Source of the DNA: a virus
IMG/VR virus record: IMGVR_UViG_3300045988_169357
Location: 1 to 36,262 of that record
Direction: 5' to 3' (one strand)
Length of the DNA stretch: 36,262 nt
Every line of letters begins with the position of its first letter. The stretch's first letter is position 1. This document shows positions 30,368-32,040 of the stretch, piece after piece. The notes below the pieces were generated by a model. The model saw only the letters and a program-made list of their open reading frames with translations. It did not search any database and was not told the DNA's origin. Position numbers and translations under genes: made by a program.

Positions 30368-30428
30368 CTTTTTAAGCTGTCTATTACAAATAAAACAACT
30401 TCCGTTTTCTTCTTGTAAGATGCTAAAT

Positions 30429-30572
30429 CTATTCTTTTCTAGTTTTGCTAACTTCTTGCTTTTCTTTTTTATCTGTCCACTTTTTATCGAATTTTCTGTG
30501 TTCTTCTTTCCGCTTTTCTGTCTTATTTTTGGGTGCTGGATTAAAACTATTTCTTAAATCTGTTACTATCAT
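30429..30572 (-). CDS. N-terminal fragment of the same Zn-binding protein gene
   Basis: ATG at 30572 in an ATGA overlap with the upstream stop. The frame is lost around the A6 run (30465-30470). Confidence 0.5.
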   Translation of the reverse strand: MIVTDLRNSFNPAPKNKTEKRKEEHRKFDKKWTDKKEKQEVSKTRKE

Positions 30573-31111
30573 TTGTCCCACTCCTTTAGCAAACTATCTA
30601 TTTCACTTTGCGGTTTTGTCTCTATATTTAATGTTTTTGCCAATTCAACAATGCTTTCTATCAATAAACTCATTTCTTTAGTATCGTATGTAGAGCTACC
30701 ATAATAGCAATTTACTTTTACACATTTATCTTTCTTACTTACTTCTTGTACTAAAAAGCCTAATCCTTGTTTTTCCCATATTCTTTTAAAGTTCGCATAT
30801 GTTTTTTCTTGTATTATAAATGGTTCAAAGCTTCCTATTTGTAATATTGCATCTTTGTATACATCTTCTTTAGTTACAATTGTTCTATCTTTACACAGTT
30901 CTTTTGCAATTTTGTCGCATAGCACCCAACAATAAGAATTAGCGTCTAAACTTCTTTTTTGTCTCCACTTTTTTAGCTCAATAGTTAGTTTATTTTCGTT
31001 TTTTAGTTGTTCAACAATATCTTTGTTGTTTGTATCTACAAGAAGGCTTATTTTTAATTTTCGAGTGTTTATGTCTGTATCTGTTTTTAGTATTATTCCT
31101 GTTGTTTGCAT
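30569..31111 (-). CDS. NinB/putative-HNHc-like recombination-associated protein
   Basis: The RSLDANSYCWVLCDKIA motif resembles the RSLxQN motif of NinB-type proteins. It lies next to ssb. Confidence 0.45.
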   Translation of the reverse strand: MQTTGIILKTDTDINTRKLKISLLVDTNNKDIVEQLKNENKLTIELKKWRQKRSLDANSYCWVLCDKIAKELCKDRTIVTKEDVYKDAILQIGSFEPFIIQEKTYANFKRIWEKQGLGFLVQEVSKKDKCVKVNCYYGSSTYDTKEMSLLIESIVELAKTLNIETKPQSEIDSLLKEWDK

Positions 31112-31123
31112 ATTCTCATCTTC

Positions 31124-31516
31124 TTAGAATGGCAAATCATCTCCACTAAATGTCTCAAAATCTGAATTTTCAGTTTGTTCTGTACTTTCAGCACTTCCTT
31201 TTTTATCTCCTGCAAAATAAACCTCTTCTGCAATTATTTCAGTTGCATAATGTTTTTGCCCTTGGTCATCATCCCAATTTCTTGTTTGGATTCTTCCTAC
31301 TACTGCAACTTGTTGTCCTTTACTAAAATATTTTTTACAAAATTCTCCTGTTTTTGCAAAAGCTATAATATTTATAAAATCTGCTTGTTGTTGTCCTTCT
31401 TTTGCAAACCTTCTATTTACTGCTAAAGCAAAATTTGCTACTAATGTATTTGTTGTTTGTGTATATCTAACATCTACATCCTTTGTTAGTCTTCCTATTA
31501 AAATTACTTTATTGAT
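31124..31516 (-). CDS. ssb: Single-stranded DNA-binding protein, absent from the ORF track because it lacks an ATG/GTG/TTG start
   Basis: Translates (I/M)NKVILIGRLTKDVDVRYTQTTNTLVANFALAVNRRF..VVGRIQTRNWDDDQGQKHYATEIIAEEVYF...FSGDDLPF, an OB-fold pattern with the canonical acidic DDLPF tail. SD AAAGGAG lies 9 nt before the ATC at 31516. Confidence 0.85.
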   Translation of the reverse strand: MNKVILIGRLTKDVDVRYTQTTNTLVANFALAVNRRFAKEGQQQADFINIIAFAKTGEFCKKYFSKGQQVAVVGRIQTRNWDDDQGQKHYATEIIAEEVYFAGDKKGSAESTEQTENSDFETFSGDDLPF

Positions 31517-32040
31517 AAGTCATCACTCCTTTTTCTTTCTAACATGTGTAATCTTGCATGTTCTCTAAATGTCATTAATTGTAGATTTTCTATTCTATTA
31601 TCATTTCTTTTATGATTTTTATGATGTACAACTTCATCATCTTTCAGCCATCTTCCTATATTACACTCCATCACTAAAACATGTTCCATAATATATCCTT
31701 CAGAGTTACTTTTAGGGTGGTCTGGAAAGTATATGGCAACATAACCATCTGCTCTTGTTTTCTTATGTCCTATTCCCTTCTTTAAACACTTCATTCTTAT
31801 TTTTTCTTTAGTTTTATTGGTAAGTTTATACCCTTTTGAATGCTTCTTGCCTTTATTAGCATTACTAATTTGTTCTCTAGCTTTTTTACTCAGTGTTTTT
31901 CTTGTTTCAATATTATAAATTTTAAAGTATTTATATATTTTGCCGACCGACATGTCTAATTTTTTTGCTATGTCCCCAATTGAATATTCTTGTGCATACA
32001 AATCTAATAATTCCTGTTCTTTAGGAACTACTTTATTCAT
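31504..32040 (-). CDS. HNH endonuclease with an N-terminal HTH
   Basis: GYIMEHVLVME..VVHHKNHKRNDNRIENLQLMTFREHARLH is an HNH motif. The likely start is the ATG at 32040, after GAGGGAGGAG. Confidence 0.8.
   Translation of the reverse strand: MNKVVPKEQELLDLYAQEYSIGDIAKKLDMSVGKIYKYFKIYNIETRKTLSKKAREQISNANKGKKHSKGYKLTNKTKEKIRMKCLKKGIGHKKTRADGYVAIYFPDHPKSNSEGYIMEHVLVMECNIGRWLKDDEVVHHKNHKRNDNRIENLQLMTFREHARLHMLERKRSDDLSIK

Follow-up and report, generated by a model that had tools for sequence, protein, structure and literature searches.

An HNH endonuclease gene inserted behind the start codon of a phage ssb gene, and a portable start region with a probable non-AUG start

Background

The HNH-family gene mobE, reportedly described by Friedrich et al. 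in 2007, is said to be inserted in nrdA of Aeromonas phage Aeh1, leaving genes in pieces; PMC2988022 covers the context of mobE. In Escherichia coli, infC and pcnB use an AUU start, and IF3 discriminates against such codons; conserved starts of the type AUU, AUC or AUA (AUH) are, to our knowledge, very rare in bacteria. In phage T4, the homing endonuclease gene segG lies between genes 59 and 32, overlaps with its 3' end the translational operator of the single-stranded DNA-binding protein (SSB), and co-transfers with gene 32 (PMC535899; PMC2988022). Further, an HNH insertion is hidden in mycobacteriophage methylase genes, as described for ShiLan (PMC11855218). We analyzed viral DNA of 36,262 nucleotides (nt), positions 1 to 36,262 of the IMG/VR record IMGVR_UViG_3300045988_169357 (hereafter the window), in which a free-standing HNH endonuclease gene is followed by an ssb gene whose reading frame opens with ATC. 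Our literature search found no phage ssb with an ATT or ATC start and no HNH gene at an ssb start.

We consider it likely, from the sequence comparisons reported here, that the HNH gene was inserted right behind the ssb start codon and that SSB is now made by genuine non-AUG initiation at the ATC of a portable replacement start region.

The ssb gene of the window and its probable ATC start

The intact 130-codon ssb of the window lies on the minus strand. Its frame opens at 31516 with ATC AAT AAA GTA ATT TTA ATA GGA and ends with TAA at 31126-31124. The product has a full-length OB fold, with residues 1-101 matching positions 1-103 of the 104 in the Pfam SSB profile (PF00436, E = 3.2e-33), and because this alignment runs from the first residue and the first profile position, the ATC stands at the position of Met-1. 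The protein also matched PHROG 44 (E = 3e-48) and ends in ...SGDDLPF, an acidic partner-binding tip of the D-D-[LI]-P-F form. The complete list of in-frame ATG, GTG, TTG and stop codons comprises TGA at 31525-31523, TGA at 31522-31520, TTG at 31135 (the L of DDLPF), and the TAA at 31126. No canonical start codon follows the ATC across 127 codons, and the tandem TGA TGA leaves no possible in-frame start upstream. The Shine-Dalgarno (SD) sequence AAAGGAG at 31532-31526 is followed by the 9-nt spacer TGATGACTT and then by ATC, which places an AUH codon at the optimal distance from the SD in a frame that offers no canonical start instead.

A first-pass annotation of the sequence had reported a 130-codon SSB frame with an OB fold and a DDLPF tip, no ATG, GTG or TTG before the TTG of that tip, AAAGGAG 9 nt ahead of ATC-AAT-AAA-GTA, and an HNH gene that begins with ATG-AAT-AAA-GTA, forms an 11/12-nt repeat with ssb, and has a stop codon overlapping the ssb N-terminus. 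Every one of these sequence statements is correct, and an ssb frame that opens with ATC is confirmed as an observation. A G-to-C error, which the same annotation had listed as a possible cause, is ruled out by the conservation of the junction: GGAGTGATGACTTATCAATAAAGTA is unchanged in L001, L174 and L175, independent contigs from strains that have 94.5-97% identity with the window over 2-3.5 kb and nevertheless differ from it at dozens of positions. Moreover, 17 contigs from different samples encode the exact HNH protein of the window, and all 6 of the contigs sampled read ...GATGACTTATCAATAAAGTA. In every public gene call for this phage (L289-L294), the ssb position is an uncalled 393-nt gap, located at 3038-3429 in L289.

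The window SSB is 97% identical to the product of an ATG-started ssb in L002, whose upstream gene is unrelated, and the DNA similarity between the two (90%) starts at about codon 6 of ssb (window position 31501). The ratio of nonsynonymous to synonymous substitution rates (dN/dS) of the window ssb was 0.12-0.25 against the HNH-bearing strains L174, L175 and L094, and 0.20 against L002.

Filled and empty insertion sites

Alignment with relatives that lack the HNH gene, a comparison suggested at first reading, identified empty sites. L003 and L004 carry the same AAA_24 gene as the window, followed directly by SD-ATG-ssb, and the approximately 524-nt segment is not there; the GGGAGG-ATG of the window HNH gene aligns with the SD-ATG of ssb in these 2 loci. 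The segment was defined by alignment with L003, L004 and L002, and its exact boundaries by analogy with L305 versus L320 and L316, described below. A search with the AAA_24 protein for a closer empty-site relative of the window gave none above 87% identity with ssb downstream. The AAA_24 stop overlaps the HNH start (32033-32040) because the HNH gene uses the former ssb start, and this overlap is the native AAA_24/ssb coupling seen in L003, inherited by HNH.

A near-isogenic test was available in a group of approximately 55-kb phages that share 92-99% SSB identity with L109. This gut phage group is very abundant, with more than 588 ssb matches in IMG/VR, and the best 80 of these matches (L297-L376) were compared. 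In 77 of the best 80 loci there is no HNH gene, and ssb is always ATG-started on the native AGTGAGGAAAAGTA or AGAAAGTGAGGAAAAGTA; in the other 3 the HNH gene is present and ssb is started with ATT on GGAGGAATGACTT. The left flank of the HNH-bearing L305 is identical to that of the HNH-less L320 at 118 of 120 positions, up to ATGAAT, and its right flank picks up at AAC AGA GTA ATT..., as in the HNH-less L316 and L302, the insert directly following the old ATG(AA). The sporadic occurrence of filled and empty sites that marks homing endonucleases was found both in this group and with L003 and L004 as empty alleles. The ssb start codon is thus directly followed by the element: HNH is translated from the SD and ATG of ssb, and the 3' end of the element gives ssb a new SD and an ATT, ATC or ATA codon. 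That ssb bears at its 5' end the scar of a homing endonuclease insertion, one of the explanations offered by the first-pass annotation, is supported by these empty-site alleles and by the position of the L109-group insert right after the ssb ATG. The features of the window are collected in Table 1.

Table 1. Features at the HNH-ssb locus of the window
Feature	Position	Strand	Remarks
ssb	31124..31516	minus	130 codons + stop; OB fold, acidic C-terminal tip GDDLPF; ATC = Met-1 position
Replacement ssb start region (putative)	31514..31534	minus	AAAAAGGAG 31534-31526, spacer TGATGACTT 31525-31517, ATC 31516-31514; within last HNH codons
Tandem TGA TGA, ssb frame	31520..31525	minus	
524-nt segment not in empty-site alleles	31514..32037	minus	HNH body + replacement start region ending in ATC
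Free-standing HNH endonuclease gene	31504..32040	minus	178 aa; N-terminal helix-turn-helix, basic linker, C-terminal HNH_3
HNH stop TAA	31504..31506	minus	Starts 10 nt downstream of A of ATC, inside ssb codons 4-5
ssb-like leader of HNH frame	32029..32040	minus	ATG AAT AAA GTA = MNKV; copy 1 of 11/12-nt repeat
Former ssb start region, now serving HNH	32038..32054	minus	GGGAGG 32054-32049, 8-nt spacer, ATG 32040-32038
AAA_24 (ATPase) gene, upstream	32033..32764	minus	Pfam PF13479 E = 4.1e-20; stop TAA 32035-32033 overlaps HNH start ATGAATAA
NinB/Orf-type recombination mediator gene, downstream	30569..31111	minus	PHROG 72 E = 7.9e-19; phage recombination/replication module context

Start codons and start regions across HNH-linked loci

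Viral, genome, and metagenome contigs supplied 76 distinct HNH-to-ssb junctions for comparison; ATH denotes ATT, ATC or ATA at the codon aligned with SSB residue 1. This codon was ATC in 25 junctions, ATT in 19, ATA in 2 and ATG in 13, with 17 further junctions having ATG or GTG one codon upstream (M-L/F/A-N-K...). ATH was thus identified in 46 of 76 HNH-linked junctions versus 3 of 37 HNH-less controls, 31 of which had ATG (Fisher p = 5e-8). The consensus of the 46 ATH junctions is AAAGGAGG-(A/G)ATGAC(T)T-ATY-AAY-AAA-GTA-ATT-TTA, the spacer after the SD following the pattern AAAGGWGG-AATGACTT, with 8-9 nt between SD and ATH. T was found at -1 in 45 of the 46 ATH junctions versus 4/13 and 1/15 in the two ATG-type classes; 41 of the 46 also have a TGA in frame at -6. 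The predicted SD duplex with the 16S tail was stronger at ATH junctions (-13.2 kcal/mol) than in controls with ATG-started ssb (-10.8 to -12.0 kcal/mol; p = 1e-5). RNA folding around the window ssb start gave z = -1.0 for 110 nt, which is not significant, so the start region is not sequestered.

The HNH stop lies at -18, -6, +1, +2, +5, +7, +10 or +16 relative to ATH, with frames 0/1/2 represented by 11/19/16 of the 46 junctions; since HNH genes stop in all three frames, HNH coding does not explain the conserved start-region nucleotides. In 91 of the 120 closest clusters, the HNH protein ends in ..MTYQ, ..MTY or ..DDLSIK immediately before the stop, and these common C-termini are the start-region motif read in two frames. 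The same distribution bears on an HNH-SSB fusion made by a -1 frameshift near A-AAG-TAA, with no separate SSB, an explanation that the first-pass annotation had raised and that is compatible with the window itself, where ssb is in the -1 frame relative to HNH. With HNH stops in all three frames and, in one locus, 18 nt upstream, such a fusion cannot be general; further, the same start region occurs behind unrelated upstream genes, the window has its in-frame TGA-TGA 5' of the overlap, and there is no conserved slippery heptamer. We regard this explanation as refuted, with a practically negligible chance of being right.

An out-of-frame ATG 7 nt upstream of the ATH codon (ATG ACT TAT C...) is present in 42 of the 46 junctions, ACN varies at its third position only, and ATT, ATC and ATA are all Ile codons, which would suit translation starting at this ATG and entering the ssb frame by a programmed +1 shift or a short hop, with ATH read as Ile or skipped. 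This is very improbable. The ATG lies only 1-2 nt from the SD and is missing from several ATH junctions (L176 AGATTATT, L185 AGAGAATT, L100 with AGG, and AGTGACTT variants), so it is not the ssb start; no slippery sequence was found, and the codon after TAT is a stop in only 19 of 46 junctions.

All 43 complete ATH ssb open reading frames (ORFs) are intact (123-156 aa), and the (L/I)PF-type tip is kept in nearly all of them. The dN/dS between ATH alleles was 0.04-0.39 at dS up to 1.07, which indicates long purifying selection in the ATH state, and codons 2-14 contain no ATG, GTG or TTG in 24 of the 46 ATH ssb genes. These results speak strongly against ssb being an untranslated relic silenced by the insertion, with host SSB serving the phage, a reading to which the lack of a canonical start and the 393-nt hole in the gene calls would lend themselves; the conserved SD and spacer are themselves under selection, and we give this reading hardly any weight.

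On one phage contig, OROL01000192.1 (50305-57063; L198, L206), two HNH-ssb modules with ATT junctions lie 3.2 kb from each other; the first ssb is truncated to 51 codons by a frameshift, and the second is intact.

The HNH endonuclease family

The HNH ORF of the window opens with ATGAATAAAGTA. Pfam identified HNH_3 (E = 1e-9) and a weak HTH_7 match at residues 15-45 (E = 8e-4), and the protein belongs to PHROG 7545. The HNH catalytic motif is conserved, with H139, H140, N148, N152, H161 and H165 invariant in 45 HNH sequences of 51-80% identity. NUMOD3 (PF07460) and HNH_3 are precomputed for many homologues, NUMOD3 mapping to the basic linker, and the N-terminal helices of the AlphaFold2 model (pLDDT 87.8) match helix-turn-helix domains of the LuxR/RcsB type; together with the weak HTH_7 match, they point to a modular DNA-binding domain. 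The best PDB fold match of the model is I-HmuI, a weak one, and a PDB sequence search with the HNH protein gave no match.

Homologues fell into 422 clusters at E <= 1e-20, none of them carrying a functional name. No full-length relative was found in 50,697 cultured-phage records; IPP24 and Javan74 share only the HNH domain, which is located elsewhere in these phages and does not adjoin ssb. Among the relatives, drawn from viral, genome, and metagenome contigs, ssb lies directly downstream in all 49 of the full-length members first found, and only four loci of the combined set have no detectable ssb, two of which run off the contig, while L188 has a diverged SSB. The 5' end of phage ssb is therefore the dedicated site of this family of endonuclease genes.

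The HNH gene itself begins like an ssb gene: 43 of the 120 closest homologues start with MNK, and the ssb-like leader reaches 7 codons in some members (MNKVILI-EE, MNSVVLI-DD). We rejected copying of the leader from the local ssb, as the leader did not resemble the ssb of its own locus significantly more than those of other loci (p = 0.11). Moreover, L109-group elements have AAT AAA GTG in the leader versus AAT CGT GTA in the local ssb, and this difference implies that the MNKV leader travels with the element; the leader is an ssb-derived relic carried along, not taken from the local gene. Group I or II introns and inteins were also considered as carriers of the HNH gene and rejected. An Rfam search of 30400-33000 at a permissive threshold returned one chance-level small RNA match only, the 524-nt insert is filled by the HNH ORF, and the window HNH gene has its own stop codon and a reading frame different from that of ssb.

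The start region without the HNH gene

A motif scan of viral contigs with GGNGGNATGACTTATHAAY gave 122 matches, 113 of which were followed by an SSB ORF. Upstream of these 113 ssb genes, we identified this HNH gene in 24 cases and other genes in 82, including an MBL-fold gene, RecT, a Rad52-like gene, other HNH types, and small ORFs; the remaining 7 were too near the contig end. The ATH start region is therefore not a property of the HNH cassette in general (82 of 113), and because it stays with ssb when the HNH gene is absent, it is a module of ssb expression and not of the endonuclease. In L391, L411, L414, L394, L396 and others, unrelated upstream genes (RecT, a nuclease-like gene, a 252-aa ORF, and small ORFs) end in ..GGMTYQ, ..GGMTY or ..NDLSIR before their stops, or at the motif TGA, and their C-terminal residues are set by the ssb start region into which they run. 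In L496 (minus strand, about 9348), an ATT-started ssb retains approximately 30 nt of the HNH 3' end (GGTATCGTAATAAAAAGGAGGAATGACTT) behind an unrelated upstream ORF, a remnant that looks like the footprint of a lost or replaced endonuclease gene.

An unbiased pattern, SD-N8-ATN-NKVILI/M, identified 43 ATH matches, of which 40 have an RRTGNCTT-type spacer, and 26 ATG matches with diverse spacers, the closest being AATGAATT. We show that a replacement start region with ATT, ATC or ATA is kept in well over 100 phage ssb genes. Judged from the alleles compared, the HNH element demonstrably carries this region and introduces it into ATG-start lineages, but persistence of the region does not depend on the HNH gene.

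Further ssb genes with unusual starts were noted. Roseburia phage Shimadzu and Dulem virus 39 have relatives of a motif-type ssb, with GTG or ATG as the start codon. In Shimadzu (L538, LR596903.1 34458-34530), the deposited SSB coding sequence begins at an internal ATG, and an SD-preceded GTG AAC AAA GTC ATT TTA ATG GGG approximately 70 nt upstream gives a full-length SSB N-terminus; the deposited start is probably wrong. An HNH-less ssb in L019 (2992-3400; also L020) has ATC at Met-1 with the SD GGAGG 8 nt upstream and a GTG overlapping the SD, carries TGA at a conserved Trp and TAG at a conserved Gln, and follows a 120-aa ORF starting with MNKENK; it is either a decaying pseudogene or belongs to a recoded phage. 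In L023 (2990-3030), ssb comes right after RecT and has ATA at Met-1 with AAAGGAGG 8 nt upstream, no HNH gene, no ATGACTT spacer, and its first ATG 6 codons in; here, a non-AUG start of ssb may have arisen independently.

Discussion

In the reading that we favor, the window is a temperate-phage replication/recombination module in which HNH is read from the former ribosome-binding site and ATG of ssb, which accounts for its SSB-like MNKV opening. The last approximately 20 nt of the insert would act as a portable ssb start, consisting of the strong SD AAAGGAG, a spacer of 8-9 nt ending in TT, and ATC, and in the P site AUC would be paired with fMet-tRNA. The stronger SD probably offsets the weak codon, and ribosomes that end the HNH ORF 10 nt downstream probably add to the supply. 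U(-1), and usually also U(-2), may help by pairing with A37/A38 of initiator tRNA; pairing of U(-1) with A37 was shown experimentally in E. coli to boost initiation (PMC10018350). Genuine initiation at ATC, the first explanation considered in the first-pass annotation, is thus supported by the pattern of conservation, with dozens of diverged ATH lineages, SD-optimal spacing, intact ORFs, and purifying selection.

Several points weigh against initiation at ATH. AUC, AUU and AUA are weak starts in E. coli, and the conserved ATGAC in the spacer is not accounted for by a plain SD and start codon. The counts of ATH loci are inflated by related genomes; a neighbor-joining tree has ATH types scattered over the HNH family, a scatter that recombination could mimic. 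In addition, phage ssb may be dispensable where host SSB substitutes for it, so that weak expression is possible.

Termination-reinitiation as the only source of SSB, with ribosomes that end an upstream ORF held by the SD and restarting at AUC and with negligible de novo 30S initiation, so that ssb would be expressed only through translation of the upstream gene, is unlikely in our view, and it is compatible with initiation at ATC and does not exclude it. The HNH stop lies within -18 to +16 nt of ATH in 46 of 46 ATH junctions, the upstream ORFs of HNH-less loci also end at or near the motif (..GGMTYQ, ..NDLSIR, and RecT with ..VSKGE at the TGA), and the stop of the MBL-fold gene lies approximately 20 nt upstream of it. 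A passage of PMC2988022, citing Adhin and van Duin, describes a scanning window of about seven codons for reinitiation. Nearby stops are, however, expected anyway in tightly packed phage operons, the same stop geometry is found at ATG-type junctions, and the SD is unusually strong, with a spacing optimal for independent 30S binding. As for the first-pass suggestion of termination-reinitiation, the stops between -18 and +16 allow it as a contributor; that it is needed did not emerge, the ATH region also standing behind unrelated genes.

Initiation at ATH leaves the third base of the codon to be accounted for. ATT, ATC and ATA interchange freely, the full spacer motif was never seen with an ATG start, and where a canonical start has been regained, an ATG was usually added one codon upstream and ATH was not changed to ATG. 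This suggests, from the alleles at hand, selection against G at +3 in this start context. Possible reasons are self-immunity of the endonuclease target, resistant alleles where the endonuclease circulates, or deliberately low or coupled expression. ATGAAYAARGT occurs in 0 of 76 HNH-linked right junctions versus 25 of 37 controls, and as the complete avoided target it was rejected: invaded L109-group alleles read ATG AAT CGT GTA, so ATGAAYAARGT cannot be the whole target. We put forward, tentatively and as something rather doubtful, that an ATG ahead of the conserved ssb codons would restore the endonuclease target at the right junction, and that a non-AUG codon destroys the site and leaves the protein unchanged; co-conversion and selection for resistance would then have spread AAAGGWGG-AATGACTT-ATH, also to HNH-less ssb. 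A variant of this idea is that the weak codon ties ssb expression to translation through the upstream selfish gene.

At least 100 phage ssb loci start with ATT, ATC or ATA and are overlooked by standard gene callers, and phage replication modules in gut metagenomes are consequently mis-annotated as having no SSB. The large natural series of ATH starts, with matched ATG sister alleles and a portable 20-nt start region, offers a test bed for the roles of SD, spacer, and U(-1) in non-AUG initiation in Firmicutes. The locus is also a clean example of a homing endonuclease gene living at the expense of its host gene, from which it takes the ribosome-binding site and start codon and to which it gives a replacement start in return.

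Comparison with known systems

T4 segG is the closest analogue. As there, an endonuclease gene lies directly upstream of a phage SSB gene, is present in some relatives only, and overlaps with its 3' end the translational control region of SSB. The T4 endonuclease, however, is of the GIY-YIG and not the HNH type, segG is intergenic and has not captured the SSB start codon, and gene 32 keeps its own AUG under control of a pseudoknot operator, with no non-AUG start.

Like mobE in Aeh1 nrdA, the element described here is a free-standing HNH-family insert in a coding region that supplies a stop and a start and so leaves the host gene working, with overlapping codons linking expression. In contrast, nrdA is split mid-gene into two polypeptides, whereas ssb is split after codon 1 and has only its start replaced, by a non-AUG codon. 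In ShiLan, too, an HNH element lies within a phage coding sequence, neither an intron nor an intein accompanies it, and the two overlapping products are translated in an unusual way. There, however, translation of the host gene continues in frame through the insert, and the HNH has a GTG start in another frame; in the locus described here, HNH has taken over the start of its host gene, which begins anew at ATH.

I-HmuI of Bacillus phage SPO1 (PDB 1U3E) was the best match of the HNH model, with a Foldseek probability of 0.97 over 92 columns, but the match is weak (E = 0.13, TM 0.34). Both proteins are modular, combining an HNH catalytic domain with DNA-binding modules of the helix-turn-helix/NUMOD type; the domain order is reversed, with the helix-turn-helix N-terminal and HNH C-terminal in the window protein, and I-HmuI is intron-encoded whereas the window HNH gene is free-standing.

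As with the AUU of infC, a near-cognate AUH codon with a third-base mismatch and a proper SD has been conserved in evolution. Unlike infC, the gene is a phage ssb and not an initiation-factor gene, AUU, AUC and AUA are interchangeable, and an RRTGNCTT spacer accompanies the codon.

New here are an insert that directly follows codon 1 and captures the start region of the host gene, and the conserved, portable non-AUG replacement start region on a scale of more than 100 ssb genes that gene callers miss. The locus thereby extends the paradigms of T4 segG/gene 32 and Aeh1 mobE/nrdA.

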